A stretch of DNA of 64,000 nucleotides, taken from the NCBI RefSeq assembly GCF_965363235.1, contig NC_134842.1:34040757-34104756 (forward strand). The letters run 5' to 3'. Positions 1 to 33,765 of the stretch are shown here, piece after piece (position 1 is the first letter of the stretch; the number at the start of each line of letters is the position of its first letter). This DNA is from Mytilus galloprovincialis. Taxonomy: Eukaryota. Both the position numbers and the translations under genes were made by a program. The notes under the pieces are model-generated. The model was given only the letters and a program-made list of their open reading frames with translations, did not search any database and was not told the DNA's origin.

Positions 1-361
1 TTCATTTGAAAACCTCTATTTTTTGGCATAGGCACATATAAAATTAACTTTTGTCAAATTTTTATAAGTCTCATACATTAAGTATGCTATCATGTACTTT
101 GAATAGCTAATATATTATCCATTGAGACATTAAAAAGTGCAATTTGGTGTTTTTTGGGGATTTTTGAAGCCAAAATTTGAAAGTTGAAATTGTTCTATTT
201 CAACGTCACAATTCAGCAACCAAAGTTGAGATATAAAAAATGCCACATTTTCTATAATATATATCATATGGCTTTGAAACTTTGTAAACTGACTCATAAT
301 ACACTAAGCTTAACTCATGCCAAGTTTTATTGGAATTGGTCAAGTTTTTGGCCCCTAATAG

Positions 362-811
362 GCCCAAGACCACAATTAATGACCCCGCTTTTCGTTGTTC
401 ACGAATATAGTTCCCTTTAATTATAGTGTATTTTTTCTTTATTTTTTTTTCTTTCCCTTTCTCATTCATTTCTTAGCTTTTCTGGGGTGGAAATGAAAGA
501 AGAGAGCTGAAATAAACTTCTGGATGGTTTATTTTAACTGATTTTAATAAGGAAAGAGTGATTAGGCCAGGTGCAAAAAGGTTATATTTACACTTTTCGG
601 AACATCTCTTGACTTGCCTATAGGGGTATGGATGTGTATTGGCCAAATTTGTATGATGTAAAGATGCAATTTTTCTGAAAATTGCATATATTTTTGGACT
701 TGTACTGTACATTACACACACAAAAAATTAGACAAAAAGAATAGGCAATTTTTTTTTAATGCGACAAAACGTTATAAAGAAATGATAGAGGAATTAATTG
801 TGGTCTCGGGC
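362..811. mobile_element. MITE copy (450 bp) inside a satellite unit. 5' terminal inverted repeat GCCCAAGACCACAATTAAT; 3' end ATTAATTGTGGTCTCGGGC. Flanked by CTAATAG / CTAAGAG, a 7-8-bp target-site duplication with one mismatch.
   Basis: Long and short units differ by exactly this 457-bp block (element plus one copy of the duplication). Short units show the empty site gcccctaatag|gtgcatttc. 8-bp duplications are typical of the hAT superfamily. Confidence 0.8.
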
Positions 812-3410
812 CTAAGAGGTGCATTTCAGCAAATTTTGAATTTATACTTTGACAACTTCTCTGAATGATCTATTGGTATTGATTTGTCAAACTATATGAG
901 AAGAAATGATTTCCACTTTTATTTGATAGAAATTTGTAAAAAAAAGTCACTTTTCAGCTGATATGCCCAAAAAGTAGCTTTTTCACTTTTTTCAATATTT
1001 TTGCAAAAGCAGTAATAATTTTTCCTTAATTTTTCTCTGACATTTTTTTTCTGATATTTATTTGTGTTTGTGGTATTTATTTCATGTGTTTTACTCATTT
1101 GTGAACTCTGAACACAAAGAAAAGTGGATAAAAGCATTAAAAGAGTGCAAAATGTGCTGTTTTAATAGTCTAGGTCTAACGGTCCGTACGAAGCAAGTGA
1201 AATATGAAGTTCTATGCACTTAAAAATTTTATTTCTTTAAACAGATTGCACTGAATCTATATCAAAAGCACTTATTACTGGTTGTTTAAACTTGTCTGTT
1301 TCACAGAATACCTTTATTTTCTTCTGTTGGATGGCTGGTGGTTAAAATTTTGGCATTTTAAGACTGAAATTTCATGCAGATTTTAAACAGTAAATTGAAA
1401 AAACTTTGCATCAGACCATACTGTCTACATATATAGTTAAAAGCAACAGTCTTGTAACATCCAGGCTTCATATTTGATCATATCTCAGCAAGGATTTGAG
1501 CAAAAAGAAGCATATTTCCATCTCCAATATCATTTATATGCAATTTAATATGGAAATATAGGGAACGGCCCAAATTGACAACTTGTTATTTTAAGCTTGA
1601 CATTGCTTAAGACCATGTAAAACTCATGTGTTATGCTCTTTGAAACTTATATTTACATCAAAAGAACATTTATGATATGTAAAATGTTTTGTTTTAACTT
1701 AACAACTTCAGAAAATTGTTGTAAGTGGAAAATATTACATTTCATATAAGGCCTCACTTCATTTGAAAACCTCTATTTTTTGGCATAGGCACATATAAAA
1801 TTAACTTTTGTCAAATTTTTATAAGTCTCATACATTAAGTATGCTATCATGTACTTTGAATAGCTAATATATTATCCATTGAGACATTAAAAAGTGCAAT
1901 TTGGTGTTTTTTGGGGATTTTTGAAGCCAAAATTTGAAAGTTGAAATTGTTCTATTTCAACGTCACAATTCAGCAACCAAAGTTGAGATATAAAAAATGC
2001 CACATTTTCTATAATATATATCATATGGCTTTGAAACTTTGTAAACTGACTCATAATACACTAAGCTTAACTCATGCCAAGTTTTATTGGAATTGGTCAA
2101 GTTTTTGGCCCCTAATAGGTGCATTTCAGCAAATTTTGAATTTATACTTTGACAACTTCTCTGAATGATCTATTGGTATTGATTTGTCAAACTATATGAG
2201 AAGAAATGATTTCCACTTTTATTTGATAGAAATTTGTAAAAAAAAGTCACTTTTCAGCTGATATGCCCAAAAAGTAGCTTTTTCACTTTTTTCAATATTT
2301 TTGCAAAAGCAGTATCCTTAATTTTTCTCTGACATTTTTTTTCTGATATTTATTTGTGTTTGTGGTATTTATTTCATGTGTTTTACTCATTTGTGAACTC
2401 TGAACACAAAGAAAAGTGGATAAAAGCATTAAAAGAGTGCAAAATGTGCTGTTTTAATAGTCTAGGTCTAACGGTCCGTACGAAGCAAGTGAAATATGAA
2501 GTTCTATGCACTTAAAAATTTTATTTCTTTAAACAGATTGCACTGAATCTATATCAAAAGCACTTATTACTGGTTGTTTAAACTTGTCTGTTTCACAGAA
2601 TACCTTTATTTTCTTCTGTTGGATGGCTGGTGGTTAAAATTTTGGCATTTTAAGACTGAAATTTCATGCAGATTTTAAACAGTAAATTGAAAAAACTTTG
2701 CATCAGACCATACTGTCTACATATATAGTTAAAAGCAACAGTCTTGTAACATCCAGGCTTCATATTTGATCATATCTCAGCAAGGATTTGAGCAAAAAGA
2801 AGCATATTTCCATCTCCAATATCATTTATATGCAATTTAATATGGAAATATAGGGAACGGCCCAAATTGACAACTTGTTATTTTAAGCTTGACATTGCTT
2901 AAGACCATGTAAAACTCATGTGTTATGCTCTTTGAAACTTATATTTACATCAAAAGAACATTTATGATATGTAAAATGTTTTGTTTTAACTTAACAACTT
3001 CAGAAAATTGTTGTAAGTGGAAAATATTACATTTCATATAAGGCCTCACTTCATTTGAAAACCTCTATTTTTTGGCATAGGCACATATAAAATTAACTTT
3101 TGTCAAATTTTTATAAGTCTCATACATTAAGTATGCTATCATGTACTTTGAATAGCTAATATATTATCCATTGAGACATTAAAAAGTGCAATTTGGTGTT
3201 TTTTGGGGATTTTTGAAGCCAAAATTTGAAAGTTGAAATTGTTCTATTTCAACGTCACAATTCAGCAACCAAAGTTGAGATATAAAAAATGCCACATTTT
3301 CTATAATATATATCATATGGCTTTGAAACTTTGTAAACTGACTCATAATACACTAAGCTTAACTCATGCCAAGTTTTATTGGAATTGGTCAAGTTTTTGG
3401 CCCCTAATAG

Positions 3411-3860
3411 GCCCAAGACCACAATTAATGACCCCGCTTTTCGTTGTTCACGAATATAGTTCCCTTTAATTATAGTGTATTTTTTCTTTATTTTTTTTTC
3501 TTTCCCTTTCTCATTCATTTCTTAGCTTTTCTGGGGTGGAAATGAAAGAAGAGAGCTGAAATAAACTTCTGGATGGTTTATTTTAACTGATTTTAATAAG
3601 GAAAGAGTGATTAGGCCAGGTGCAAAAAGGTTATATTTACACTTTTCGGAACATCTCTTGACTTGCCTATAGGGGTATGGATGTGTATTGGCCAAATTTG
3701 TATGATGTAAAGATGCAATTTTTCTGAAAATTGCATATATTTTTGGACTTGTACTGTACATTACACACACAAAAAATTAGACAAAAAGAATAGGCAATTT
3801 TTTTTTAATGCGACAAAACGTTATAAAGAAATGATAGAGGAATTAATTGTGGTCTCGGGC
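3411..3860. mobile_element. MITE copy (same element as 362-811)
   Basis: Identical sequence and flanks; long satellite unit. Confidence 0.8.
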
Positions 3861-6800
3861 CTAAGAGGTGCATTTCAGCAAATTTTGAATTTATACTTTG
3901 ACAACTTCTCTGAATGATCTATTGGTATTGATTTGTCAAACTATATGAGAAGAAATGATTTCCACTTTTATTTGATAGAAATTTGTAAAAAAAGTCACTT
4001 TTCAGCTGATATGCCCAAAAAGTAGCTTTTTCACTTTTTTCAATATTTTTGCAAAAGCAGTATCCTTAATTTTTCTCTGACATTTTTTTTCTGATATTTA
4101 TTTGTGTTTGTGGTATTTATTTCATGTGTTTTACTCATTTGTGAACTCTGAACACAAAGAAAAGTGGATAAAAGCATTAAAAGAGTGCAAAATGTGCTGT
4201 TTTAATAGTCTAGGTCTAACGGTCAGTACGAAGCAAGTGAAATATGAAGTTCTATGCACTTAAAAATTTTATTTCTTTAAACAGATTGCACTGAATCTAT
4301 ATCAAAAGCACTTATTACTGGTTGTTTAAACTTGTCTGTTTCACAGAATACCTTTATTTTCTTCTGTTGGATGGCTGGTGGTTAAAATTTTGGCATTTTA
4401 AGACTGAAATTTCATGCAGATTTTAAACAGTAAATTGAAAAAAACTTTGCATCAGACCATACTGTCTACATATATAGTTAAAAGCAACAGTCTTGTAACA
4501 TCCAGGCTTCATATTTGATCATATCTCAGCAAGGATTTGAGCAAAAAGAAGCATATTTCCATCTCCAATATCATTTATATGCAATTTAATATGGAAATAT
4601 AGGGAACGGCCCAAATTGACAACTTGTTATTTTAAGCTTGACATTGCTTAAGACCATGTAAAACTCATGTGTTATGCTCTTTGAAACTTATATTTACATC
4701 AAAAGAACATTTATGATATGTAAAATGTTTTGTTTTAACTTAACAACTTCAGAAAATTGTTGTAAGTGGAAAATATTACATTTCATATAAGGCCTCACTT
4801 CATTTGAAAACCTCTATTTTTTGGCATAGGCACATATAAAATTAACTTTTGTCAAATTTTTATAAGTCTCATACATTAAGTATGCTATCATGTACTTTGA
4901 ATAGCTAATATATTATCCATTGAGACATTAAAAAGTGCAATTTGGTGTTTTTTGGGGATTTTTGAAGCCAAAATTTGAAAGTTGAAATTGTTCTATTTCA
5001 ACGTCACAATTCAGCAACCAAAGTTGAGATATAAAAAATGCCACATTTTCTATAATATATATCATATGGCTTTGAAACTTTGTAAACTGACTCATAATAC
5101 ACTAAGCTTAACTCATGCCAAGTTTTATTGGAATTGGTCAAGTTTTTGGCCCCTAATAGGTGCATTTCAGCAAATTTTGAATTTATACTTTGACAACTTC
5201 TCTGAATGATCTATTGGTATTGATTTGTCAAACTATATGAGAAGAAATGATTTCCACTTTTATTTGATAGAAATTTGTAAAAAAAGTCACTTTTCAGCTG
5301 ATATGCCCAAAAAGTAGCTTTTTCACTTTTTTCAATATTTTTGCAAAAGCAGTATCCTTAATTTTTCTCTGACATTTTTTTTCTGATATTTATTTGTGTT
5401 TGTGGTATTTATTTCATGTGTTTTACTCATTTGTGAACTCTGAACACAAAGAAAAGTGGATAAAAGCATTAAAAGAGTGCAAAATGTGCTGTTTTAATAG
5501 TCTAGGTCTAACGGTCCGTACGAAGCAAGTGAAATATGAAGTTCTATGCACTTAAAAATTTTATTTCTTTAAACAGATTGCACTGAATCTATATCAAAAG
5601 CACTTATTACTGGTTGTTTAAACTTGTCTGTTTCACAGAATACCTTTATTTTCTTCTGTTGGATGGCTGGTGGTTAAAATTTTGGCATTTTAAGACTGAA
5701 ATTTCATGCAGATTTTAAACAGTAAATTGAAAAAACTTTGCATCAGACCATACTGTCTACATATATAGTTAAAAGCAACAGTCTTGTAACATCCAGGCTT
5801 CATATTTGATCATATCTCAGCAAGGATTTGAGCAAAAAGAAGCATATTTCCATCTCCAATATCATTTATATGCAATTTAATATGGAAATATAGGGAACGG
5901 CCCAAATTGACAACTTGTTATTTTAAGCTTGACATTGCTTAAGACCATGTAAAACTCATGTGTTATGCTCTTTGAAACTTATATTTACATCAAAAGAACA
6001 TTTATGATATGTAAAATGTTTTGTTTTAACTTAACAACTTCAGAAAATTGTTGTAAGTGGAAAATATTACATTTCATATAAGGCCTCACTTCATTTGAAA
6101 ACCTCTATTTTTTGGCATAGGCACATATAAAATTAACTTTTGTCAAATTTTTATAAGTCTCATACATTAAGTATGCTATCATGTACTTTGAATAGCTAAT
6201 ATATTATCCATTGAGACATTAAAAAGTGCAATTTGGTGTTTTTTGGGGATTTTTGAAGCCAAAATTTGAAAGTTGAAATTGTTCTATTTCAACGTCACAA
6301 TTCAGCAACCAAAGTTGAGATATAAAAAATGCCACATTTTCTATAATATATATCATATGGCTTTGAAACTTTGTAAACTGACTCATAATACACTAAGCTT
6401 AACTCATGCCAAGTTTTATTGGAATTGGTCAAGTTTTTGGCCCCTAATAGGTGCATTTCAGCAAATTTTGAATTTATACTTTGACAACTTCTCTGAATGA
6501 TCTATTGGTATTGATTTGTCAAACTATATGAGAAGAAATGATTTCCACTTTTATTTGATAGAAATTTGTAAAAAAAGTCACTTTTCAGCTGATATGCCCA
6601 AAAAGTAGCTTTTTCACTTTTTTCAATATTTTTGCAAAAGCAGTATCCTTAATTTTTCTCTGACATTTTTTTTCTGATATTTATTTGTGTTTGTGGTATT
6701 TATTTCATGTGTTTTACTCATTTGTGAACTCTGAACACAAAGAAAAGTGGATAAAAGCATTAAAAGAGTGCAAAATGTGCTGTTTTAATAGTCTAGGTCT

Positions 6801-7741
6801 AACGGTCCGTACGAAGCAAGTGAAATATGAAGTTCTATGCACTTAAAAATTTTATTTCTTTAAACAGATTGCACTGAATCTATATCAAAAGCACTTATTA
6901 CTGGTTGTTTAAACTTGTCTGTTTCACAGAATACCTTTATTTTCTTCTGTTGGATGGCTGGTGGTTAAAATTTTGGCATTTTAAGACTGAAATTTCATGC
7001 AGATTTTAAACAGTAAATTGAAAAAACTTTGCATCAGACCATACTGTCTACATATATAGTTAAAAGCAACAGTCTTGTAACATCCAGGCTTCATATTTGA
7101 TCATATCTCAGCAAGGATTTGAGCAAAAAGAAGCATATTTCCATCTCCAATATCATTTATATGCAATTTAATATGGAAATATAGGGAACGGCCCAAATTG
7201 ACAACTTGTTATTTTAAGCTTGACATTGCTTAAGACCATGTAAAACTCATGTGTTATGCTCTTTGAAACTTATATTTACATCAAAAGAACATTTATGATA
7301 TGTAAAATGTTTTGTTTTAACTTAACAACTTCAGAAAATTGTTGTAAGTGGAAAATATTACATTTCATATAAGGCCTCACTTCATTTGAAAACCTCTATT
7401 TTTTGGCATAGGCACATATAAAATTAACTTTTGTCAAATTTTTATAAGTCTCATACATTAAGTATGCTATCATGTACTTTGAATAGCTAATATATTATCC
7501 ATTGAGACATTAAAAAGTGCAATTTGGTGTTTTTTGGGGATTTTTGAAGCCAAAATTTGAAAGTTGAAATTGTTCTATTTCAACGTCACAATTCAGCAAC
7601 CAAAGTTGAGATATAAAAAATGCCACATTTTCTATAATATATATCATATGGCTTTGAAACTTTGTAAACTGACTCATAATACACTAAGCTTAACTCATGC
7701 CAAGTTTTATTGGAATTGGTCAAGTTTTTGGCCCCTAATAG

Positions 7742-8191
7742 GCCCAAGACCACAATTAATGACCCCGCTTTTCGTTGTTCACGAATATAGTTCCCTTTAA
7801 TTATAGTGTATTTTTTCTTTATTTTTTTTTCTTTCCCTTTCTCATTCATTTCTTAGCTTTTCTGGGGTGGAAATGAAAGAAGAGAGCTGAAATAAACTTC
7901 TGGATGGTTTATTTTAACTGATTTTAATAAGGAAAGAGTGATTAGGCCAGGTGCAAAAAGGTTATATTTACACTTTTCGGAACATCTCTTGACTTGCCTA
8001 TAGGGGTATGGATGTGTATTGGCCAAATTTGTATGATGTAAAGATGCAATTTTTCTGAAAATTGCATATATTTTTGGACTTGTACTGTACATTACACACA
8101 CAAAAAATTAGACAAAAAGAATAGGCAATTTTTTTTTAATGCGACAAAACGTTATAAAGAAATGATAGAGGAATTAATTGTGGTCTCGGGC
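7742..8191. mobile_element. MITE copy (same element)
   Basis: Identical sequence and flanks; long satellite unit. Confidence 0.8.
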
Positions 8192-9489
8192 CTAAGAGGT
8201 GCATTTCAGCAAATTTTGAATTTATACTTTGACAACTTCTCTGAATGATCTATTGGTATTGATTTGTCAAACTATATGAGAAGAAATGATTTCCACTTTT
8301 ATTTGATAGAAATTTGTAAAAAAAGTCACTTTTCAGCTGATATGCCCAAAAAGTAGCTTTTTCACTTTTTTCAATATTTTTGCAAAAGCAGTATCCTTAA
8401 TTTTTCTCTGACATTTTTTTTCTGATATTTATTTGTGTTTGTGGTATTTATTTCATGTGTTTTACTCATTTGTGAACTCTGAACACAAAGAAAAGTGGAT
8501 AAAAGCATTAAAAGAGTGCAAAATGTGCTGTTTTAATAGTCTAGGTCTAACGGTCCGTACGAAGCAAGTGAAATATGAAGTTCTATGCACTTAAAAATTT
8601 TATTTCTTTAAACAGATTGCACTGAATCTATATCAAAAGCACTTATTACTGGTTGTTTAAACTTGTCTGTTTCACAGAATACCTTTATTTTCTTCTGTTG
8701 GATGGCTGGTGGTTAAAATTTTGGCATTTTAAGACTGAAATTTCATGCAGATTTTAAACAGTAAATTGAAAAAACTTTGCATCAGACCATACTGTCTACA
8801 TATATAGTTAAAAGCAACAGTCTTGTAACATCCAGGCTTCATATTTGATCATATCTCAGCAAGGATTTGAGCAAAAAGAAGCATATTTCCATCTCCAATA
8901 TCATTTATATGCAATTTAATATGGAAATATAGGGAACGGCCCAAATTGACAACTTGTTATTTTAAGCTTGACATTGCTTAAGACCATGTAAAACTCATGT
9001 GTTATGCTCTTTGAAACTTATATTTACATCAAAAGAACATTTATGATATGTAAAATGTTTTGTTTTAACTTAACAACTTCAGAAAATTGTTGTAAGTGGA
9101 AAATATTACATTTCATATAAGGCCTCACTTCATTTGAAAACCTCTATTTTTTGGCATAGGCACATATAAAATTAACTTTTGTCAAATTTTTATAAGTCTC
9201 ATACATTAAGTATGCTATCATGTACTTTGAATAGCTAATATATTATCCATTGAGACATTAAAAAGTGCAATTTGGTGTTTTTTGGGGATTTTTGAAGCCA
9301 AAATTTGAAAGTTGAAATTGTTCTATTTCAACGTCACAATTCAGCAACCAAAGTTGAGATATAAAAAATGCCACATTTTCTATAATATATATCATATGGC
9401 TTTGAAACTTTGTAAACTGACTCATAATACACTAAGCTTAACTCATGCCAAGTTTTATTGGAATTGGTCAAGTTTTTGGCCCCTAATAG

Positions 9490-9939
9490 GCCCAAGACCA
9501 CAATTAATGACCCCGCTTTTCGTTGTTCACGAATATAGTTCCCTTTAATTATAGTGTATTTTTTCTTTATTTTTTTTTCTTTCCCTTTCTCATTCATTTC
9601 TTAGCTTTTCTGGGGTGGAAATGAAAGAAGAGAGCTGAAATAAACTTCTGGATGGTTTATTTTAACTGATTTTAATAAGGAAAGAGTGATTAGGCCAGGT
9701 GCAAAAAGGTTATATTTACACTTTTCGGAACATCTCTTGACTTGCCTATAGGGGTATGGATGTGTATTGGCCAAATTTGTATGATGTAAAGATGCAATTT
9801 TTCTGAAAATTGCATATATTTTTGGACTTGTACTGTACATTACACACACAAAAAATTAGACAAAAAGAATAGGCAATTTTTTTTTAATGCGACAAAACGT
9901 TATAAAGAAATGATAGAGGAATTAATTGTGGTCTCGGGC
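9490..9939. mobile_element. MITE copy (same element)
   Basis: Identical sequence and flanks; long satellite unit. Confidence 0.8.
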
Positions 9940-12528
9940 CTAAGAGGTGCATTTCAGCAAATTTTGAATTTATACTTTGACAACTTCTCTGAATGATCTA
10001 TTGGTATTGATTTGTCAAACTATATGAGAAGAAATGATTTCCACTTTTATTTGATAGAAATTTGTAAAAAAAGTCACTTTTCAGCTGATATGCCCAAAAA
10101 GTAGCTTTTTCACTTTTTTCAATATTTTTGCAAAAGCAGTATCCTTAATTTTTCTCTGACATTTTTTTTCTGATATTTATTTGTGTTTGTGGTATTTATT
10201 TCATGTGTTTTACTCATTTGTGAACTCTGAACACAAAGAAAAGTGGATAAAAGCATTAAAAGAGTGCAAAATGTGCTGTTTTAATAGTCTAGGTCTAACG
10301 GTCCGTACGAAGCAAGTGAAATATGAAGTTCTATGCACTTAAAAATTTTATTTCTTTAAACAGATTGCACTGAATCTATATCAAAAGCACTTATTACTGG
10401 TTGTTTAAACTTGTCTGTTTCACAGAATACCTTTATTTTCTTCTGTTGGATGGCTGGTGGTTAAAATTTTGGCATTTTAAGACTGAAATTTCATGCAGAT
10501 TTTAAACAGTAAATTGAAAAAACTTTGCATCAGACCATACTGTCTACATATATAGTTAAAAGCAACAGTCTTGTAACATCCAGGCTTCATATTTGATCAT
10601 ATCTCAGCAAGGATTTGAGCAAAAAGAAGCATATTTCCATCTCCAATATCATTTATATGCAATTTAATATGGAAATATAGGGAACGGCCCAAATTGACAA
10701 CTTGTTATTTTAAGCTTGACATTGCTTAAGACCATGTAAAACTCATGTGTTATGCTCTTTGAAACTTATATTTACATCAAAAGAACATTTATGATATGTA
10801 AAATGTTTTGTTTTAACTTAACAACTTCAGAAAATTGTTGTAAGTGGAAAATATTACATTTCATATAAGGCCTCACTTCATTTGAAAACCTCTATTTTTT
10901 GGCATAGGCACATATAAAATTAACTTTTGTCAAATTTTTATAAGTCTCATACATTAAGTATGCTATCATGTACTTTGAATAGCTAATATATTATCCATTG
11001 AGACATTAAAAAGTGCAATTTGGTGTTTTTTGGGGATTTTTGAAGCCAAAATTTGAAAGTTGAAATTGTTCTATTTCAACGTCACAATTCAGCAACCAAA
11101 GTTGAGATATAAAAAATGCCACATTTTCTATAATATATATCATATGGCTTTGAAACTTTGTAAACTGACTCATAATACACTAAGCTTAACTCATGCCAAG
11201 TTTTATTGGAATTGGTCAAGTTTTTGGCCCCTAAGAGGTGCATTTCAGCAAATTTTGAATTTATACTTTGACAACTTCTCTGAATGATCTATTGGTATTG
11301 ATTTGTCAAACTATATGAGAAGAAATGATTTCCACTTTTATTTGATAGAAATTTGTAAAAAAAGTCACTTTTCAGCTGATATGCCCAAAAAGTAGCTTTT
11401 TCACTTTTTTCAATATTTTTGCAAAAGCAGTATCCTTAATTTTTCTCTGACATTTTTTTTCTGATATTTATTTGTGTTTGTGGTATTTATTTCATGTGTT
11501 TTACTCATTTGTGAACTCTGAACACAAAGAAAAGTGGATAAAAGCATTAAAAGAGTGCAAAATGTGCTGTTTTAATAGTCTAGGTCTAACGGTCCGTACG
11601 AAGCAAGTGAAATATGAAGTTCTATGCACTTAAAAATTTTATTTCTTTAAACAGATTGCACTGAATCTATATCAAAAGCACTTATTACTGGTTGTTTAAA
11701 CTTGTCTGTTTCACAGAATACCTTTATTTTCTTCTGTTGGATGGCTGGTGGTTAAAATTTTGGCATTTTAAGACTGAAATTTCATGCAGATTTTAAACAG
11801 TAAATTGAAAAAACTTTGCATCAGACCATACTGTCTACATATATAGTTAAAAGCAACAGTCTTGTAACATCCAGGCTTCATATTTGATCATATCTCAGCA
11901 AGGATTTGAGCAAAAAGAAGCATATTTCCATCTCCAATATCATTTATATGCAATTTAATATGGAAATATAGGGAACGGCCCAAATTGACAACTTGTTATT
12001 TTAAGCTTGACATTGCTTAAGACCATGTAAAACTCATGTGTTATGCTCTTTGAAACTTATATTTACATCAAAAGAACATTTATGATATGTAAAATGTTTT
12101 GTTTTAACTTAACAACTTCAGAAAATTGTTGTAAGTGGAAAATATTACATTTCATATAAGGCCTCACTTCATTTGAAAACCTCTATTTTTTGGCATAGGC
12201 ACATATAAAATTAACTTTTGTCAAATTTTTATAAGTCTCATACATTAAGTATGCTATCATGTACTTTGAATAGCTAATATATTATCCATTGAGACATTAA
12301 AAAGTGCAATTTGGTGTTTTTTGGGGATTTTTGAAGCCAAAATTTGAAAGTTGAAATTGTTCTATTTCAACGTCACAATTCAGCAACCAAAGTTGAGATA
12401 TAAAAAATGCCACATTTTCTATAATATATATCATATGGCTTTGAAACTTTGTAAACTGACTCATAATACACTAAGCTTAACTCATGCCAAGTTTTATTGG
12501 AATTGGTCAAGTTTTTGGCCCCTAATAG

Positions 12529-12978
12529 GCCCAAGACCACAATTAATGACCCCGCTTTTCGTTGTTCACGAATATAGTTCCCTTTAATTATAGTGTATTT
12601 TTTCTTTATTTTTTTTTCTTTCCCTTTCTCATTCATTTCTTAGCTTTTCTGGGGTGGAAATGAAAGAAGAGAGCTGAAATAAACTTCTGGATGGTTTATT
12701 TTAACTGATTTTAATAAGGAAAGAGTGATTAGGCCAGGTGCAAAAAGGTTATATTTACACTTTTCGGAACATCTCTTGACTTGCCTATAGGGGTATGGAT
12801 GTGTATTGGCCAAATTTGTATGATGTAAAGATGCAATTTTTCTGAAAATTGCATATATTTTTGGACTTGTACTGTACATTACACACACAAAAAATTAGAC
12901 AAAAAGAATAGGCAATTTTTTTTTAATGCGACAAAACGTTATAAAGAAATGATAGAGGAATTAATTGTGGTCTCGGGC
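12529..12978. mobile_element. MITE copy (same element)
   Basis: Identical sequence and flanks; long satellite unit. Confidence 0.8.
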
Positions 12979-15567: not shown

Positions 15568-16017
15568 GCCCAAGACCACAATTAATGACCCCGCTTTTCG
15601 TTGTTCACGAATATAGTTCCCTTTAATTATAGTGTATTTTTTCTTTATTTTTTTTTCTTTCCCTTTCTCATTCATTTCTTAGCTTTTCTGGGGTGGAAAT
15701 GAAAGAAGAGAGCTGAAATAAACTTCTGGATGGTTTATTTTAACTGATTTTAATAAGGAAAGAGTGATTAGGCCAGGTGCAAAAAGGTTATATTTACACT
15801 TTTCGGAACATCTCTTGACTTGCCTATAGGGGTATGGATGTGTATTGGCCAAATTTGTATGATGTAAAGATGCAATTTTTCTGAAAATTGCATATATTTT
15901 TGGACTTGTACTGTACATTACACACACAAAAAATTAGACAAAAAGAATAGGCAATTTTTTTTTAATGCGACAAAACGTTATAAAGAAATGATAGAGGAAT
16001 TAATTGTGGTCTCGGGC
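15568..16017. mobile_element. MITE copy (same element)
   Basis: Identical sequence and flanks; long satellite unit. Confidence 0.8.
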
Positions 16018-18606: not shown

Positions 18607-19056
18607 GCCCAAGACCACAATTAATGACCCCGCTTTTCGTTGTTCACGAATATAGTTCCCTTTAATTATAGTGTATTTTTTCTTTATTTTTTTTTCTTTC
18701 CCTTTCTCATTCATTTCTTAGCTTTTCTGGGGTGGAAATGAAAGAAGAGAGCTGAAATAAACTTCTGGATGGTTTATTTTAACTGATTTTAATAAGGAAA
18801 GAGTGATTAGGCCAGGTGCAAAAAGGTTATATTTACACTTTTCGGAACATCTCTTGACTTGCCTATAGGGGTATGGATGTGTATTGGCCAAATTTGTATG
18901 ATGTAAAGATGCAATTTTTCTGAAAATTGCATATATTTTTGGACTTGTACTGTACATTACACACACAAAAAATTAGACAAAAAGAATAGGCAATTTTTTT
19001 TTAATGCGACAAAACGTTATAAAGAAATGATAGAGGAATTAATTGTGGTCTCGGGC
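18607..19056. mobile_element. MITE copy (same element)
   Basis: Identical sequence and flanks; long satellite unit. Confidence 0.8.
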
Positions 19057-20354
19057 CTAAGAGGTGCATTTCAGCAAATTTTGAATTTATACTTTGACAA
19101 CTTCTCTGAATGATCTATTGGTATTGATTTGTCAAACTATATGAGAAGAAATGATTTCCACTTTTATTTGATAGAAATTTGTAAAAAAAGTCACTTTTCA
19201 GCTGATATGCCCAAAAAGTAGCTTTTTCACTTTTTTCAATATTTTTGCAAAAGCAGTATCCTTAATTTTTCTCTGACATTTTTTTTCTGATATTTATTTG
19301 TGTTTGTGGTATTTATTTCATGTGTTTTACTCATTTGTGAACTCTGAACACAAAGAAAAGTGGATAAAAGCATTAAAAGAGTGCAAAATGTGCTGTTTTA
19401 ATAGTCTAGGTCTAACGGTCCGTACGAAGCAAGTGAAATATGAAGTTCTATGCACTTAAAAATTTTATTTCTTTAAACAGATTGCACTGAATCTATATCA
19501 AAAGCACTTATTACTGGTTGTTTAAACTTGTCTGTTTCACAGAATACCTTTATTTTCTTCTGTTGGATGGCTGGTGGTTAAAATTTTGGCATTTTAAGAC
19601 TGAAATTTCATGCAGATTTTAAACAGTAAATTGAAAAAACTTTGCATCAGACCATACTGTCTACATATATAGTTAAAAGCAACAGTCTTGTAACATCCAG
19701 GCTTCATATTTGATCATATCTCAGCAAGGATTTGAGCAAAAAGAAGCATATTTCCATCTCCAATATCATTTATATGCAATTTAATATGGAAATATAGGGA
19801 ACGGCCCAAATTGACAACTTGTTATTTTAAGCTTGACATTGCTTAAGACCATGTAAAACTCATGTGTTATGCTCTTTGAAACTTATATTTACATCAAAAG
19901 AACATTTATGATATGTAAAATGTTTTGTTTTAACTTAACAACTTCAGAAAATTGTTGTAAGTGGAAAATATTACATTTCATATAAGGCCTCACTTCATTT
20001 GAAAACCTCTATTTTTTGGCATAGGCACATATAAAATTAACTTTTGTCAAATTTTTATAAGTCTCATACATTAAGTATGCTATCATGTACTTTGAATAGC
20101 TAATATATTATCCATTGAGACATTAAAAAGTGCAATTTGGTGTTTTTTGGGGATTTTTGAAGCCAAAATTTGAAAGTTGAAATTGTTCTATTTCAACGTC
20201 ACAATTCAGCAACCAAAGTTGAGATATAAAAAATGCCACATTTTCTATAATATATATCATATGGCTTTGAAACTTTGTAAACTGACTCATAATACACTAA
20301 GCTTAACTCATGCCAAGTTTTATTGGAATTGGTCAAGTTTTTGGCCCCTAATAG

Positions 20355-20804
20355 GCCCAAGACCACAATTAATGACCCCGCTTTTCGTTGTTCACGAATA
20401 TAGTTCCCTTTAATTATAGTGTATTTTTTCTTTATTTTTTTTTCTTTCCCTTTCTCATTCATTTCTTAGCTTTTCTGGGGTGGAAATGAAAGAAGAGAGC
20501 TGAAATAAACTTCTGGATGGTTTATTTTAACTGATTTTAATAAGGAAAGAGTGATTAGGCCAGGTGCAAAAAGGTTATATTTACACTTTTCGGAACATCT
20601 CTTGACTTGCCTATAGGGGTATGGATGTGTATTGGCCAAATTTGTATGATGTAAAGATGCAATTTTTCTGAAAATTGCATATATTTTTGGACTTGTACTG
20701 TACATTACACACACAAAAAATTAGACAAAAAGAATAGGCAATTTTTTTTTAATGCGACAAAACGTTATAAAGAAATGATAGAGGAATTAATTGTGGTCTC
20801 GGGC
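20355..20804. mobile_element. MITE copy (same element)
   Basis: Identical sequence and flanks; long satellite unit. Confidence 0.8.
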
Positions 20805-23393
20805 CTAAGAGGTGCATTTCAGCAAATTTTGAATTTATACTTTGACAACTTCTCTGAATGATCTATTGGTATTGATTTGTCAAACTATATGAGAAGAAAT
20901 GATTTCCACTTTTATTTGATAGAAATTTGTAAAAAAAGTCACTTTTCAGCTGATATGCCCAAAAAGTAGCTTTTTCACTTTTTTCAATATTTTTGCAAAA
21001 GCAGTATCCTTAATTTTTCTCTGACATTTTTTTTCTGATATTTATTTGTGTTTGTGGTATTTATTTCATGTGTTTTACTCATTTGTGAACTCTGAACACA
21101 AAGAAAAGTGGATAAAAGCATTAAAAGAGTGCAAAATGTGCTGTTTTAATAGTCTAGGTCTAACGGTCCGTACGAAGCAAGTGAAATATGAAGTTCTATG
21201 CACTTAAAAATTTTATTTCTTTAAACAGATTGCACTGAATCTATATCAAAAGCACTTATTACTGGTTGTTTAAACTTGTCTGTTTCACAGAATACCTTTA
21301 TTTTCTTCTGTTGGATGGCTGGTGGTTAAAATTTTGGCATTTTAAGACTGAAATTTCATGCAGATTTTAAACAGTAAATTGAAAAAACTTTGCATCAGAC
21401 CATACTGTCTACATATATAGTTAAAAGCAACAGTCTTGTAACATCCAGGCTTCATATTTGATCATATCTCAGCAAGGATTTGAGCAAAAAGAAGCATATT
21501 TCCATCTCCAATATCATTTATATGCAATTTAATATGGAAATATAGGGAACGGCCCAAATTGACAACTTGTTATTTTAAGCTTGACATTGCTTAAGACCAT
21601 GTAAAACTCATGTGTTATGCTCTTTGAAACTTATATTTACATCAAAAGAACATTTATGATATGTAAAATGTTTTGTTTTAACTTAACAACTTCAGAAAAT
21701 TGTTGTAAGTGGAAAATATTACATTTCATATAAGGCCTCACTTCATTTGAAAACCTCTATTTTTTGGCATAGGCACATATAAAATTAACTTTTGTCAAAT
21801 TTTTATAAGTCTCATACATTAAGTATGCTATCATGTACTTTGAATAGCTAATATATTATCCATTGAGACATTAAAAAGTGCAATTTGGTGTTTTTTGGGG
21901 ATTTTTGAAGCCAAAATTTGAAAGTTGAAATTGTTCTATTTCAACGTCACAATTCAGCAACCAAAGTTGAGATATAAAAAATGCCACATTTTCTATAATA
22001 TATATCATATGGCTTTGAAACTTTGTAAACTGACTCATAATACACTAAGCTTAACTCATGCCAAGTTTTATTGGAATTGGTCAAGTTTTTGGCCCCTAAT
22101 AGGTGCATTTCAGCAAATTTTGAATTTATACTTTGACAACTTCTCTGAATGATCTATTGGTATTGATTTGTCAAACTATATGAGAAGAAATGATTTCCAC
22201 TTTTATTTGATAGAAATTTGTAAAAAAAGTCACTTTTCAGCTGATATGCCCAAAAAGTAGCTTTTTCACTTTTTTCAATATTTTTGCAAAAGCAGTATCC
22301 TTAACTTTTCTCTGACATTTTTTTTCTGATATTTATTTGTGTTTGTGGTATTTATTTCATGTGTTTTACTCATTTGTGAACTCTGAACACAAAGAAAAGT
22401 GGATAAAAGCATTAAAAGAGTGCAAAATGTGCTGTTTTAATAGTCTAGGTCTAACGGTCCGTACGAAGCAAGTGAAATATGAAGTTCTATGCACTTAAAA
22501 ATTTTATTTCTTTAAACAGATTGCACTGAATCTATATCAAAAGCACTTATTACTGGTTGTTTAAACTTGTCTGTTTCACAGAATACCTTTATTTTCTTCT
22601 GTTGGATGGCTGGTGGTTAAAATTTTGGCATTTTAAGACTGAAATTTCATGCAGATTTTAAACAGTAAATTGAAAAAACTTTGCATCAGACCATACTGTC
22701 TACATATATAGTTAAAAGCAACAGTCTTGTAACATCCAGGCTTCATATTTGATCATATCTCAGCAAGGATTTGAGCAAAAAGAAGCATATTTCCATCTCC
22801 AATATCATTTATATGCAATTTAATATGGAAATATAGGGAACGGCCCAAATTGACAACTTGTTATTTTAAGCTTGACATTGCTTAAGACCATGTAAAACTC
22901 ATGTGTTATGCTCTTTGAAACTTATATTTACATCAAAAGAACATTTATGATATGTAAAATGTTTTGTTTTAACTTAACAACTTCAGAAAATTGTTGTAAG
23001 TGGAAAATATTACATTTCATATAAGGCCTCACTTCATTTGAAAACCTCTATTTTTTGGCATAGGCACATATAAAATTAACTTTTGTCAAATTTTTATAAG
23101 TCTCATACATTAAGTATGCTATCATGTACTTTGAATAGCTAATATATTATCCATTGAGACATTAAAAAGTGCAATTTGGTGTTTTTTGGGGATTTTTGAA
23201 GCCAAAATTTGAAAGTTGAAATTGTTCTATTTCAACGTCACAATTCAGCAACCAAAGTTGAGATATAAAAAATGCCACATTTTCTATAATATATATCATA
23301 TGGCTTTGAAACTTTGTAAACTGACTCATAATACACTAAGCTTAACTCATGCCAAGTTTTATTGGAATTGGTCAAGTTTTTGGCCCCTAATAG

Positions 23394-23843
23394 GCCCAAG
23401 ACCACAATTAATGACCCCGCTTTTCGTTGTTCACGAATATAGTTCCCTTTAATTATAGTGTATTTTTTCTTTATTTTTTTTTCTTTCCCTTTCTCATTCA
23501 TTTCTTAGCTTTTCTGGGGTGGAAATGAAAGAAGAGAGCTGAAATAAACTTCTGGATGGTTTATTTTAACTGATTTTAATAAGGAAAGAGTGATTAGGCC
23601 AGGTGCAAAAAGGTTATATTTACACTTTTCGGAACATCTCTTGACTTGCCTATAGGGGTATGGATGTGTATTGGCCAAATTTGTATGATGTAAAGATGCA
23701 ATTTTTCTGAAAATTGCATATATTTTTGGACTTGTACTGTACATTACACACACAAAAAATTAGACAAAAAGAATAGGCAATTTTTTTTTAATGCGACAAA
23801 ACGTTATAAAGAAATGATAGAGGAATTAATTGTGGTCTCGGGC
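23394..23843. mobile_element. MITE copy (same element)
   Basis: Identical sequence and flanks; long satellite unit. Confidence 0.8.
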
Positions 23844-26432
23844 CTAAGAGGTGCATTTCAGCAAATTTTGAATTTATACTTTGACAACTTCTCTGAATGA
23901 TCTATTGGTATTGATTTGTCAAACTATATGAGAAGAAATGATTTCCACTTTTATTTGATAGAAATTTGTAAAAAAAGTCACTTTTCAGCTGATATGCCCA
24001 AAAAGTAGCTTTTTCACTTTTTTCAATATTTTTGCAAAAGCAGTATCCTTAATTTTTCTCTGACATTTTTTTTCTGATATTTATTTGTGTTTGTGGTATT
24101 TATTTCATGTGTTTTACTCATTTGTGAACTCTGAACACAAAGAAAAGTGGATAAAAGCATTAAAAGAGTGCAAAATGTGCTGTTTTAATAGTCTAGGTCT
24201 AACGGTCCGTACGAAGCAAGTGAAATATGAAGTTCTATGCACTTAAAAATTTTATTTCTTTAAACAGATTGCACTGAATCTATATCAAAAGCACTTATTA
24301 CTGGTTGTTTAAACTTGTCTGTTTCACAGAATACCTTTATTTTCTTCTGTTGGATGGCTGGTGGTTAAAATTTTGGCATTTTAAGACTGAAATTTCATGC
24401 AGATTTTAAACAGTAAATTGAAAAAACTTTGCATCAGACCATACTGTCTACATATATAGTTAAAAGCAACAGTCTTGTAACATCCAGGCTTCATATTTGA
24501 TCATATCTCAGCAAGGATTTGAGCAAAAAGAAGCATATTTCCATCTCCAATATCATTTATATGCAATTTAATATGGAAATATAGGGAACGGCCCAAATTG
24601 ACAACTTGTTATTTTAAGCTTGACATTGCTTAAGACCATGTAAAACTCATGTGTTATGCTCTTTGAAACTTATATTTACATCAAAAGAACATTTATGATA
24701 TGTAAAATGTTTTGTTTTAACTTAACAACTTCAGAAAATTGTTGTAAGTGGAAAATATTACATTTCATATAAGGCCTCACTTCATTTGAAAACCTCTATT
24801 TTTTGGCATAGGCACATATAAAATTAACTTTTGTCAAATTTTTATAAGTCTCATACATTAAGTATGCTATCATGTACTTTGAATAGCTAATATATTATCC
24901 ATTGAGACATTAAAAAGTGCAATTTGGTGTTTTTTGGGGATTTTTGAAGCCAAAATTTGAAAGTTGAAATTGTTCTATTTCAACGTCACAATTCAGCAAC
25001 CAAAGTTGAGATATAAAAAATGCCACATTTTCTATAATATATATCATATGGCTTTGAAACTTTGTAAACTGACTCATAATACACTAAGCTTAACTCATGC
25101 CAAGTTTTATTGGAATTGGTCAAGTTTTTGGCCCCTAATAGGTGCATTTCAGCAAATTTTGAATTTATACTTTGACAACTTCTCTGAATGATCTATTGGT
25201 ATTGATTTGTCAAACTATATGAGAAGAAATGATTTCCACTTTTATTTGATAGAAATTTGTAAAAAAAGCCACTTTTCAGCTGATATGCCCAAAAAGTAGC
25301 TTTTTCACTTTTTTCAATATTTTTGCAAAAGCAGTATCCTTAATTTTTCTCTGACATTTTTTTTCTGATATTTATTTGTGTTTGTGGTATTTATTTCATG
25401 TGTTTTACTCATTTGTGAACTCTGAACACAAAGAAAAGTGGATAAAAGCATTAAAAGAGTGCAAAATGTGCTGTTTTAATAGTCTAGGTCTAACGGTCCG
25501 TACGAAGCAAGTGAAATATGAAGTTCTATGCACTTAAAAATTTTATTTCTTTAAACAGATTGCACTGAATCTATATCAAAAGCACTTATTACTGGTTGTT
25601 TAAACTTGTCTGTTTCACAGAATACCTTTATTTTCTTCTGTTGGATGGCTGGTGGTTAAAATTTTGGCATTTTAAGACTGAAATTTCATGCAGATTTTAA
25701 ACAGTAAATTGAAAAAACTTTGCATCAGACCATACTGTCTACATATATAGTTAAAAGCAACAGTCTTGTAACATCCAGGCTTCATATTTGATCATATCTC
25801 AGCAAGGATTTGAGCAAAAAGAAGCATATTTCCATCTCCAATATCATTTATATGCAATTTAATATGGAAATATAGGGAACGGCCCAAATTGACAACTTGT
25901 TATTTTAAGCTTGACATTGCTTAAGACCATGTAAAACTCATGTGTTATGCTCTTTGAAACTTATATTTACATCAAAAGAACATTTATGATATGTAAAATG
26001 TTTTGTTTTAACTTAACAACTTCAGAAAATTGTTGTAAGTGGAAAATATTACATTTCATATAAGGCCTCACTTCATTTGAAAACCTCTATTTTTTGGCAT
26101 AGGCACATATAAAATTAACTTTTGTCAAATTTTTATAAGTCTCATACATTAAGTATGCTATCATGTACTTTGAATAGCTAATATATTATCCATTGAGACA
26201 TTAAAAAGTGCAATTTGGTGTTTTTTGGGGATTTTTGAAGCCAAAATTTGAAAGTTGAAATTGTTCTATTTCAACGTCACAATTCAGCAACCAAAGTTGA
26301 GATATAAAAAATGCCACATTTTCTATAATATATATCATATGGCTTTGAAACTTTGTAAACTGACTCATAATACACTAAGCTTAACTCATGCCAAGTTTTA
26401 TTGGAATTGGTCAAGTTTTTGGCCCCTAATAG

Positions 26433-26882
26433 GCCCAAGACCACAATTAATGACCCCGCTTTTCGTTGTTCACGAATATAGTTCCCTTTAATTATAGTGT
26501 ATTTTTTCTTTATTTTTTTTTCTTTCCCTTTCTCATTCATTTCTTAGCTTTTCTGGGGTGGAAATGAAAGAAGAGAGCTGAAATAAACTTCTGGATGGTT
26601 TATTTTAACTGATTTTAATAAGGAAAGAGTGATTAGGCCAGGTGCAAAAAGGTTATATTTACACTTTTCGGAACATCTCTTGACTTGCCTATAGGGGTAT
26701 GGATGTGTATTGGCCAAATTTGTATGATGTAAAGATGCAATTTTTCTGAAAATTGCATATATTTTTGGACTTGTACTGTACATTACACACACAAAAAATT
26801 AGACAAAAAGAATAGGCAATTTTTTTTTAATGCGACAAAACGTTATAAAGAAATGATAGAGGAATTAATTGTGGTCTCGGGC
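26433..26882. mobile_element. MITE copy (same element)
   Basis: Identical sequence and flanks; long satellite unit. Confidence 0.8.
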
Positions 26883-28180
26883 CTAAGAGGTGCATTTCAG
26901 CAAATTTTGAATTTATACTTTGACAACTTCTCTGAATGATCTATTGGTATTGATTTGTCAAACTATATGAGAAGAAATGATTTCCACTTTTATTTGATAG
27001 AAATTTGTAAAAAAAGTCACTTTTCAGCTGATATGCCCAAAAAGTAGCTTTTTCACTTTTTTCAATATTTTTGCAAAAGCAGTATCCTTAATTTTTCTCT
27101 GACATTTTTTTTCTGATATTTATTTGTGTTTGTGGTATTTATTTCATGTGTTTTACTCATTTGTGAACTCTGAACACAAAGAAAAGTGGATAAAAGCATT
27201 AAAAGAGTGCAAAATGTGCTGTTTTAATAGTCTAGGTCTAACGGTCCGTACGAAGCAAGTGAAATATGAAGTTCTATGCACTTAAAAATTTTATTTCTTT
27301 AAACAGATTGCACTGAATCTATATCAAAAGCACTTATTACTGGTTGTTTAAACTTGTCTGTTTCACAGAATACCTTTATTTTCTTCTGTTGGATGGCTGG
27401 TGGTTAAAATTTTGGCATTTTAAGACTGAAATTTCATGCAGATTTTAAACAGTAAATTGAAAAAACTTTGCATCAGACCATACTGTCTACATATATAGTT
27501 AAAAGCAACAGTCTTGTAACATCCAGGCTTCATATTTGATCATATCTCAGCAAGGATTTGAGCAAAAAGAAGCATATTTCCATCTCCAATATCATTTATA
27601 TGCAATTTAATATGGAAATATAGGGAACGGCCCAAATTGACAACTTGTTATTTTAAGCTTGACATTGCTTAAGACCATGTAAAACTCATGTGTTATGCTC
27701 TTTGAAACTTATATTTACATCAAAAGAACATTTATGATATGTAAAATGTTTTGTTTTAACTTAACAACTTCAGAAAATTGTTGTAAGTGGAAAATATTAC
27801 ATTTCATATAAGGCCTCACTTCATTTGAAAACCTCTATTTTTTGGCATAGGCACATATAAAATTAACTTTTGTCAAATTTTTATAAGTCTCATACATTAA
27901 GTATGCTATCATGTACTTTGAATAGCTAATATATTATCCATTGAGACATTAAAAAGTGCAATTTGGTGTTTTTTGGGGATTTTTGAAGCCAAAATTTGAA
28001 AGTTGAAATTGTTCTATTTCAACGTCACAATTCAGCAACCAAAGTTGAGATATAAAAAATGCCACATTTTCTATAATATATATCATATGGCTTTGAAACT
28101 TTGTAAACTGACTCATAATACACTAAGCTTAACTCATGCCAAGTTTTATTGGAATTGGTCAAGTTTTTGGCCCCTAATAG

Positions 28181-28630
28181 GCCCAAGACCACAATTAATG
28201 ACCCCGCTTTTCGTTGTTCACGAATATAGTTCCCTTTAATTATAGTGTATTTTTTCTTTATTTTTTTTTCTTTCCCTTTCTCATTCATTTCTTAGCTTTT
28301 CTGGGGTGGAAATGAAAGAAGAGAGCTGAAATAAACTTCTGGATGGTTTATTTTAACTGATTTTAATAAGGAAAGAGTGATTAGGCCAGGTGCAAAAAGG
28401 TTATATTTACACTTTTCGGAACATCTCTTGACTTGCCTATAGGGGTATGGATGTGTATTGGCCAAATTTGTATGATGTAAAGATGCAATTTTTCTGAAAA
28501 TTGCATATATTTTTGGACTTGTACTGTACATTACACACACACAAAATTAGACAAAAAGATTAGGCAAATTTTTTTTAATGCGACAAAACGTTATAAAGAA
28601 ATGATAGAGGAATTAATTGTGGTCTCGGGC
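28181..28630. mobile_element. Last MITE copy. The satellite array ends immediately after its 3' terminal repeat (ggtctcgggcc then tatagg and unique sequence).
   Basis: Homology to the satellite monomer stops at about 28632. This last unit is slightly diverged (acacacacacaaaattagacaaaaagattagg). Confidence 0.8.
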
Positions 28631-28632
28631 CT

Positions 28633-29075
28633 ATAGGTGGCACGGTAGTATTTGCATTCCAGAATTTAGGTTGCTCTTTTGTGTACCCTACTTAGGTAAA
28701 TGTATCTAAACAGTGTGATTGGACAAAAAATACAGTATCAACTGAACATACTTTCCCAAACTGAGGGATGAATCAGGTGTAGAAAAATATGAAATAATTT
28801 TACATACAGATGAAAATGAATTTTTGAGAATTTTTTTAAATTTTGTATTCACTGCACCATAAAATACCTAAAAGTACTAGTGGCCTTAGGTTTTTAAAAA
28901 TAGCAAAAAAAGTAAACGGTCATGATACATATTCAAATTCATTTCTGAATAGTAAAATGAAAGTACTTCAGTTAACTGTGAATGTAGAATTTTTTGCAGT
29001 GTTAGAAAGTGGTGAAAATTCTAAAAAGGCTATCATTATCCCTTATGGGCCAGGAAATACTACCGTGCCACCTAT
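28633..29075. repeat. Pair of 22-23-bp inverted repeats, ATAGGTGGCACGGTAGTATTT (28633-28655) and its reverse complement (29053-29075), about 400 bp apart. An inner 11-13-bp inverted repeat GCCGGCGAGCG / CGCTCGCCGGC lies at 29085-29167.
   Basis: Reverse-complement identity read directly. Sits directly next to the satellite end. Confidence 0.6.
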
Positions 29076-33495: not shown

Positions 33496-33765
33496 AAATA
33501 CAATATTGTTATCTCCATTCTAATGAAACTGACAGAAAACAACGTTAAAACCTGTATTCAAAATATGTCATATGCCGTCTGCGCTTGCGCGTACGTCCCA
33601 TAGCATCAATTGTCAATTGATGCCATGTAAATAAGTGACGTTATCCAATCAAAATGAACGTTACAAACATTGTTGCATTAGAATTTGAAATAGAGTAATG
33701 AACATCCTTAAATCACTGGGTGCATACCCTTTGATTCTGACAGGGCAACACATTATTCTACTTAC

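Follow-up and report, generated by a model that had tools for sequence, protein, structure and literature searches.

The DNA described here is a stretch of 64,000 nucleotides of Mytilus galloprovincialis (NCBI RefSeq assembly GCF_965363235.1, contig NC_134842.1, positions 34,040,757 to 34,104,756 of the forward strand), referred to below as the window. GC content is about 30% across the whole window. Positions 1 to 28633 (+ strand) are occupied by a tandem array of 18 complete units and a truncated 19th, in the order LSLSSLLSLSLSLLSLSLL. The units come in two forms, a long (L) unit of typically 1748 bp and a short (S) unit of typically 1291 bp. The L form contains a transposable element of the miniature inverted-repeat type (MITE), with a core of 452 bp, which the S form does not. 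Because the array is cut by the start of the window on its left, 28.6 kb is a minimum length.

The repeat structure was established by self-comparison of 20-mers. Each 20-mer of the interval 1-28.6 kb is present about 15 to 18 times, with main offsets of 1748 and 1291 bp, and the same comparison of 29-64 kb revealed nothing comparable to the array repeat. Tandem Repeats Finder (TRF) was silent on the array, whose period is longer than the 500-bp maximum of the program, and the k-mer analysis was used in its place. An anchor 25-mer found once per unit places the 19 unit starts at 1, 1758, 3050, 4799, 6090, 7381, 9129, 10877, 12168, 13916, 15207, 16955, 18246, 19994, 21742, 23033, 24781, 26072, and 27820. 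The 18 complete units are thus, in order, 1757, 1292, 1749, 1291, 1291, 1748, 1748, 1291, 1748, 1291, 1748, 1291, 1748, 1748, 1291, 1748, 1291, and 1748 bp long, giving the order LSLSSLLSLSLSLLSLSL, followed by the truncated 19th unit, which is an L unit still carrying the full insertion (totals, 11 L and 8 S). An earlier reading made from the letters alone (the sequence-only reading) had described a tandem array of at least 28.6 kb with these 19 units, 11 L and 8 S, at more than 99% identity. The k-mer self-comparison, the anchor 25-mer, and the unit alignment agree on the array, the order derived from the anchor reproduces the earlier string exactly, and in the alignment the identity of the units exceeds 99.9%.

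The locus is therefore a head-to-tail series of 19 near-identical units with periods of 1748 and 1291 bp. A representative L unit (7381..9128, +, 1748 bp) consists of a left segment of about 355 bp (A), a 5-bp repeat, the 452-bp MITE, a second 5-bp repeat, and a right segment of about 931 bp (B). In the S unit, represented by 4799..6089 (+, 1291 bp), A and B are joined via a single copy of the repeat. The unit is non-coding: its longest open reading frame (ORF) has 87 codons' worth of residues (87 aa) and is without a Pfam match. When the six-frame ORFs of the unit were compared with 5.8 billion proteins, no homologues were found except for two ORFs overlying MITE copies; a chimeric query of all other six-frame unit ORFs gave no match in the protein search, and an exact look-up of 10 unit ORFs in the protein collection found 0. 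Rfam at gathering thresholds returned no match in the array, which rules out a cluster of rRNA, snRNA, tRNA, or histone-type genes. The 1291-bp unit was also considered as a transposable element (TE) in its own right, and a search for terminal inverted repeats (TIRs) around it found none. No copies of the satellite were found elsewhere in the window. The array is a non-coding, large-unit tandem array, macrosatellite-like in character.

The units, designated U01 onward from the left, were aligned with MAFFT, and diversity was counted outside the L/S indel. A single block of 457/458 columns splits L from S. Outside it, the whole array contains only 4 substitutions (T>C shared by U12 and U17, T>C in U15, C>A in U03, and a T/G site in the U08 junction), 2 homopolymer length changes (A7>A8 in U01 and U02, A6>A7 in U03), and one 8-bp insertion private to U01. 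The mean pairwise difference between units is 1.6 per 1300 columns, and the substitution diversity outside the indel is about 0.03%. Across the alignment outside the indel there is no diagnostic position that separates L from S units. Five of the eight variants outside the MITE (the U08 junction included and A7>A8 counted twice) lie in U01-U03, at 1-4798 of the window; this set comprises the 8-bp insertion, one substitution, and the two homopolymer changes, of which A7>A8 affects U01 as well as U02. Either the left edge of the array, which is out of view, may lie close to this cluster, or the assembly may be noisier there.

The order of the two forms is also informative. The sequence-only reading had called the arrangement one without strict periodicity, and its order string is exact; yet the array contains 15 runs of L or S compared to 10.3 expected for a random order (P=0.018), so that alternation is in excess and LS dimers (3039 bp) are over-represented. 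U12 and U17, which share a private T>C, are both S, lie five units (7826 bp) apart, and are each followed by L L. In addition, one homopolymer variant is common to U01 (L) and U02 (S). Unequal exchange that duplicates blocks of one to five units is consistent with these patterns.

Eleven copies of the MITE are present, all on the + strand: 361..812, 3410..3861, 7741..8192, 9489..9940, 12528..12979, 15567..16018, 18606..19057, 20354..20805, 23393..23844, 26432..26883, and 28180..28631. The core begins with GGCCC and ends with GGGCC, and its TIRs, TAGGCCCAAGACCACAATTAAT and TAGGCCCGAGACCACAATTAAT, match at 21 of 22 positions. The 22-nt TIR TAGGCCC(A/G)AGACCACAATTAAT occurs 22 times in the window, always within the array, where 0.01 occurrences would be expected by chance, and the remaining 35 kb of the window contains no further copy of the MITE. 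The element is AT-rich, lacks a Pfam match, encodes no transposase, and folds as a panhandle (z = -4.8); thus, it has the TIRs, the small size, and the lack of coding capacity of a MITE. The 10 internal copies are 100% identical to one another. The 11th, at the extreme right edge of the array and with no B segment after it, has 3 substitutions, all in its last 90 bp.

Multiple loci outside the window also contain the element. An 82-aa chance ORF inside the MITE has two matches among the 5.8 billion proteins, and these lead to two public metagenome contigs from other samples. The first, L005 (ENA ERZ27246563, 1093 bp), covers A, MITE, and B of a long satellite unit, matching at 96% identity along the whole contig and with both junctions identical. 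In the second, L006 (ENA ERZ6864376, 3132 bp), only the 452-bp segment matches, as a full copy with 92.6% identity, and the flanks (...CACTGTGTT / GGCCC...GGGCC / TGTTGGGAGG...) are unrelated to the satellite. A scan of metagenome contigs with the TIR yielded a third, L007 (ERZ887851, 4207 bp), in which positions 1-126 are the last 126 bp of one MITE copy and 4090-4207 the first 118 bp of another, both 92.5% identical to the copies in the array. The same scan of viral contigs gave none. In genome contigs it gave three matches of 20-24 bp in bacterial metagenome-assembled genomes (MAGs), where about 2 are expected by chance, and none of these extends. L006 and L007, which come from related samples and not from the source genome, thus provide multiple dispersed copies with unrelated flanks. 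The sequence-only reading had made its case for a MITE hang on copies outside the satellite, and a full copy in L006 and two ends in L007 are just such copies. The MITE is a member of a real, dispersed, mobile TIR family.

As an observation in its own right, the two copies of the same MITE in L007 lie, in another sample, in direct orientation around 3963 bp of unrelated DNA. This geometry of MITE-segment-MITE is one that could seed a tandem duplication. The 3963-bp interior was compared with the satellite unit as a possible diverged homologue, and no collinear similarity was seen even at low stringency.

Two direct repeats mark the junctions between the MITE and the unit. The indel that separates L from S is 457 bp, made up of the 452-bp core (GGCCC...GGGCC) and a 5-bp repeat, with alternative readings that go up to a 448-bp core and a 9-bp repeat; the 450-bp insertion of the sequence-only reading is thus a real TIR segment whose size is corrected to a 452-bp core within a 457-bp indel. 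An L unit reads ...TTTTTGGCCCCTAATA / GGCCCAAGACCACAATTAAT...ATTAATTGTGGTCTCGGGCC / TAAGAGGTGCATTT..., and an S unit reads ...GGCCCCTAATAGGTGCATTT. In the representative L unit the left repeat, TAATA, lies at 7736..7740 (+), is extendable to CCTAATAGG with the boundary bases, and is the same in 11 of 11 L units. The right repeat, TAAGA, lies at 8193..8197 (+), is extendable to CCTAAGAGG, and is the same in the 10 internal L units. The insertion point, as the sequence-only reading had stated, is shared by all 11 copies. That reading had also claimed the same target-site duplication (TSD) throughout. The flanks are indeed alike across L units, but the two copies differ from each other by one base, T on the left and G on the right in every L unit.

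In all 8 S units the junction equals the L sequence minus the element and minus one copy of the repeat, and no degenerate MITE copy was found inside an S unit. This junction exists as two alleles. The T form, GGCCCCTAATAGGTGCA, is found in 7 units, at 2107..2123 (+) and also at 5148, 6439, 14265, 17304, 22091, and 25130; the G form, GGCCCCTAAGAGGTGCA, is found in U08 (11226..11242, +) and equals the right-hand repeat of the L units. One site, a constant T/G mismatch in the flanks, and the complete identity of the internal copies indicate a single origin of the MITE in the unit, consistent with the earlier claim that it inserted once.

The flanks at the other loci bear on the nature of these repeats. 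At L007 the ends read GGGT-CTAATA / GGCCC and GGGCC / TAAGAGG-CTGATT, and thus the bases next to the MITE are the array's own six and seven, including T on the left and G on the right. From L007, CTAATA and TAAGAGG may be either the element's subterminal tips or an unusually long target preference. L006 is without CTAATA/TAAGAGG and has TGTT on both sides, directly abutting GGCCC and GGGCC. Since CTAATA/TAAGAGG, with the T/G difference, flanks MITE ends at L007, an S junction that bears these bases looks like a remnant rather than a virgin site.

The relative ages of the L form and of the dimorphism can be judged from L005, which differs from the L unit of the window by 3.9%. Identity is 94.9% in A, 96.3% in the MITE, and 97.5% in B, and the T/G mismatch of the flanking repeat is also present. 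Because the divergence is spread over all three segments, the MITE, together with its T/G mismatch, was in the unit before the two arrays diverged. The MITE-bearing L form is old, far older than the homogenisation within the array; the divergence between L005 and the window is more than 100-fold greater than the diversity within the array. The theory of unequal crossing-over holds that the time for a neutral variant to reach fixation or be lost is roughly the time in which units coalesce. Given that timescale, a diversity of about 0.03%, and the lack of any L- or S-specific site, the dimorphism should be much younger than the L form, and its persistence for over 100 times the array's coalescence depth is unlikely. 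A higher-order LS repeat, if stable, would keep both forms but is disfavoured, since its L and S monomers would be free to diverge, and they have not.

On balance, we lean towards the idea that the S units are recent derivatives of L that arose by precise loss of the MITE and were shuffled among the L units by unequal exchange. By this account, the MITE would have entered the unit once, long ago, and would have been amplified passively since then as part of it, establishing a composite unit of 1291 bp of anonymous sequence and a 452-bp non-autonomous TIR element. The inverted repeats, which can form a hairpin, are bordered by the 5-9-bp direct repeats, and precise loss would have come about when these mispaired by slippage or recombined. 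Depending on the side of the T/G mismatch on which this was resolved, the T form (7 units) or the G form (1 unit) would remain, and the short units would now be shuffled among long units, partly as LS dimers. Direct repeats just outside an inverted repeat are the classical substrate for precise deletion by slipped mispairing, as in the excision of Tn5 and Tn10. The presence of two S alleles, T and G, is a prediction of such a repeat-mediated deletion.

The direction of the polymorphism is then probably the reverse of that proposed by the sequence-only reading, in which the S units are empty sites and an insertion polymorphism is still segregating: the L unit is old, as judged by the 96% identity of L005, and L and S have no diagnostic differences, which argues for loss rather than gain. 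We infer all three elements of this account, namely loss rather than gain, the slippage mechanism, and a role for the MITE at the boundary of the array (see below).

Several points weigh against this account. A junction with a single copy of the repeat is exactly what a never-occupied target would look like, and on the evidence of the window alone that explanation is the simpler one. L005 may derive from a paralogous array or from another species. No S-type unit was retrieved from any other sample, and the argument for the polarity is population-genetic rather than one from an outgroup. Gene conversion that stops at the boundary of heterology could keep the flanks of L and S identical for a long time, and the left end of the array lies outside the window. 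Finally, the flanks of L006 point to CTAATA/TAAGAGG as a target-site duplication and not as element tips, with three loci in all to judge by.

The strongest alternative is the sequence-only model itself, which we regard as possible although rather doubtful. It holds that a satellite of S units existed first, that one MITE transposed into it with a TSD, that L units then spread by exchange or conversion, and that the present S units are ancestral empty sites. This model has the simplicity of the textbook pattern of TSD and empty site. It accounts for the composition of all eight S junctions and for copies that are identical and at a single site, and it agrees with L006, whose different flanks abut GGCCC/GGGCC directly, as target DNA should. 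However, L units of different samples are at least about 4% diverged, yet within the window nothing but the indel tells L from S, and a polymorphism in transit would not be expected to survive for over 100 times the depth at which the units coalesce. Furthermore, every L unit, L005 included, has the T/G mismatch in its "TSD", and the mismatch is seen again at L007; the terminal unit, which has no homology on its right, would need an extra truncation that coincides exactly with the end of the MITE.

The right edge of the array is where that terminal unit lies. The last unit follows the array through the MITE and diverges 2 bp past GGGCC, at 28633. There it abuts a second, unrelated MITE-like element of 441 bp (28634..29074, strand not assigned), which has perfect 20-nt TIRs (TAGGTGGCACGGTAGTATTT) and TA on both sides. 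This TIR and the TA are a Tc1/mariner (Stowaway-like) signature, and the element is inserted exactly at the edge of the array; there are no other copies of it in the window, and unique sequence follows it. Directly after it, at 29081-29169, lies an inverted repeat whose GC-rich 13-nt arms (GTGCCGGCGAGCG...CGCTCGCCGGCAC) are about 60 nt apart, situated inside a 197-aa ORF (28843-29436) without a Pfam match. Neither the sequence past the end of the array nor the second element is significantly similar to B (P = 0.03-0.9), and both were rejected as a diverged continuation of it.

Of the three substitutions in the terminal MITE, two are clearly private when compared with L005, L006, and L007. Divergence of the terminal MITE alone is the signature expected of an old array edge that is beyond the reach of homogenisation. 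By a post hoc estimate, an arbitrary boundary would fall within a few bp of the MITE end in less than 1% of cases. The distal part of a terminal unit is never exchanged in crossing-over, and conversion depends on homology to either side; these processes alone should therefore not be able to set a MITE at the edge. Thus, the earlier proposal that the MITE spread by unequal exchange or conversion holds in so far as block exchange is seen (U12 and U17), but as the sole process it fails for a MITE at an array edge without homology on the right. From the edge we infer that the MITE has been more than a passive hitch-hiker. Its right terminus would have set the right edge of the array, with the element involved in either creating or truncating it. 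In one version, the array would have been truncated at the MITE end; the ends of transposons are known to cause adjacent deletions. In the other, the MITE would have been present at the birth of the array, via exchange between two nearby copies or via aberrant transposition.

The second version can be extended to a fuller reading, which we hold to be speculative and rather doubtful: the MITE nucleated the array, with either two neighbouring copies in direct orientation or an aberrant transposition from a MITE end giving rise to the initial duplication of the 1291-bp segment, the "TSD" is in fact the element's tips, and the MITE is now being purged by hairpin-stimulated deletion. Nucleation predicts a MITE end at the unseen left edge of the array as well. 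If it were true, one element would be both founder and casualty of a macrosatellite, and both steps would be readable in a single locus.

It seems improbable that the interleaving of L and S, or the length of the array, is an artefact of mis-assembly or over-polishing of a near-identical repeat, for example by the mixing of two haplotypes. Unit identity above 99.9% is a regime in which assemblers and polishers make errors, and of the seven differences found beyond the indel, three either alter homopolymer length or are a small insertion, with a concentration in U01-U03. Against this, the L unit and the two junctions of its MITE are also present in L005, an independent contig from short reads, the interleaving of single units (1.3-1.7 kb) would have to occur within individual long reads, and the shared private variants form a sensible pattern of blocks. 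The least credible explanation is site-specific insertion of the R1/R2 kind, in which 11 independent events placed a MITE once per unit into a CTAAKAGG-like target; although the two MITE ends of L007 do carry the array's flanking bases at an unrelated locus, independent events would have produced perfect duplications (T/T or G/G) rather than a constant T on the left and G on the right, the flanks of L006 differ, and the 10 internal copies are completely identical with their flanks co-homogenised.

The sequence-only reading had called the MITE hAT-like, an assignment that is unsupported. The array has a direct repeat of 5-9 bp with one mismatch; the repeat of L006 is TGTT, lengthening to 7 bp when an indel is permitted. 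To read an 8-bp duplication requires asymmetric element ends, 5, 7, and 9 bp fit equally well, and the L006 repeat is not 8 bp. The window does contain a hAT transposase remnant (49143-50691, - strand), consisting of two overlapping ORFs of 322 and 196 aa with a Dimer_Tnp_hAT match (E = 1e-18), but no sequence near it comes within 3 mismatches of the 22-nt TIR of the MITE, and thus TIRs shared with an autonomous hAT element are not seen within the window. Other duplications fare no better. TA abuts GGCCC/GGGCC in the array and at L007, while L006 has TT/TG, and the S junction is 3 bp shorter than a TA (Tc1-mariner) empty site would be. A TAA duplication, as in PIF-type elements, reproduces only the junction of U08, and TTAA (piggyBac) is not present at the ends of the MITE. 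Each of these three readings fails at one locus or more, and the length of the duplication cannot be fixed, which is why no superfamily is assigned.

Several known systems resemble the array in part. In rDNA arrays, units with and without R1/R2 are interleaved in one homogenised array, and R1/R2 insert there again and again at their specific site. For the present array, the constant T/G mismatch is evidence against such repeated re-insertion. Tn5 and Tn10 can be excised precisely and independently of transposase when slippage occurs between the 9-bp repeats at their flanks, a process that the inverted repeats stimulate. As in the L units, the direct repeats lie just outside long inverted repeats and the product keeps one copy of the repeat; the mechanism has been demonstrated in bacteria, whereas here it is deduced from the product alone.

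That a transposon can be amplified within a satellite unit is well documented, and as a category it is not new. A review covers transposons inserted into satellite arrays, MITEs that carry tandem repeats or turn into them, and monomers of composite TE origin (PMC12628747). In Messor ants, the MITE IRE-130 in satellite DNA carries mariner (Mboumar) copies at the same TA in several units, and in vitro tests found no insertion hot spot (PMC2581405), so that amplification with the satellite remains as the alternative there. The two systems share a MITE inside satellite units and an insertion at one position in several units. The present unit is much larger (1.3-1.7 kb), its copies are identical, the full local L/S order is visible, and a single-copy gene is adjacent.

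In Acropora, full-size MITEs and spacers form tandem arrays (CMITE), which the authors attribute to replication slippage and not to transposition, and elements of the CMITE-IN and MSITE types carry extra bases outside their inverted repeats (PMC2872659). CTAATA/TAAGAGG may be extra bases of this kind. The CMITEs are about 100 bp and of piggyBac type (TTAA), unlike the unclassified 452-bp element described here, with its 1291-bp spacer, at least 19 units, and dimorphism. For Xstir and miDNA4 of Xenopus and for "TE graveyard" monomers, short direct repeats and microhomology have been invoked for internal deletions and expansions (PMC12628747). In these cases too, TE sequence has been turned into part of a tandem monomer, but it comes from the interior of a MITE or from mosaics of degraded TEs, whereas the MITE of the present array is intact, keeps both TIRs, and rides as a passenger within a larger unit.

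What is distinctive about the present array is the combination of a large unit, intact and identical MITEs, a resolved L/S order, two alleles of the short junction, and an edge at a MITE terminus. The value of the locus is one of resolution: the L/S order, the fixed flank mismatch, the two S alleles, an unhomogenised terminal copy, and an outgroup copy of the L unit can all be read. Thus, a naturally occurring array allows tests of polarity (gain or loss) and of mechanism (exchange of blocks, deletion mediated by repeats, effects of the edge). Should other individuals bear out the loss model and what is seen at the edge, the array would be a compact natural system in which to measure the turnover of units and the removal of MITEs.

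The remainder of the window contains an intron-containing gene for the major vault protein (MVP), whose exons lie on the minus strand from about 33.6 to 46 kb and encode the domains Vault, Vault_3, and MVP_shoulder. Compared with the best public metagenome contigs, its exons have about 86% identity in DNA and 95-98% in protein, and the introns do not align. The array lies about 5 kb beyond the 3' side of the gene (downstream), and its context looks intergenic rather than centromeric and is not obviously a satellite-only region. Close to the 3' part of MVP, at 33350-33516, is a near-perfect hairpin with 63-nt arms (95% complementarity) and a 41-nt loop; another, with 36-nt arms (94% complementarity) and a 24-nt loop, is found at 63063-63158. 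Between 51860 and 58714, tandem-repeat blocks of 35 bp, 135 bp, and 161-170 bp recur in the same order in several copies with 86-94% identity, one pair of which is about 4.8 kb apart. These blocks resemble the non-autonomous transposons with internal satellite-like repeats that have been described in bivalves. A short array of 117-119-bp tandem repeats, with about 75-80% matches, is located at 60750-61168.

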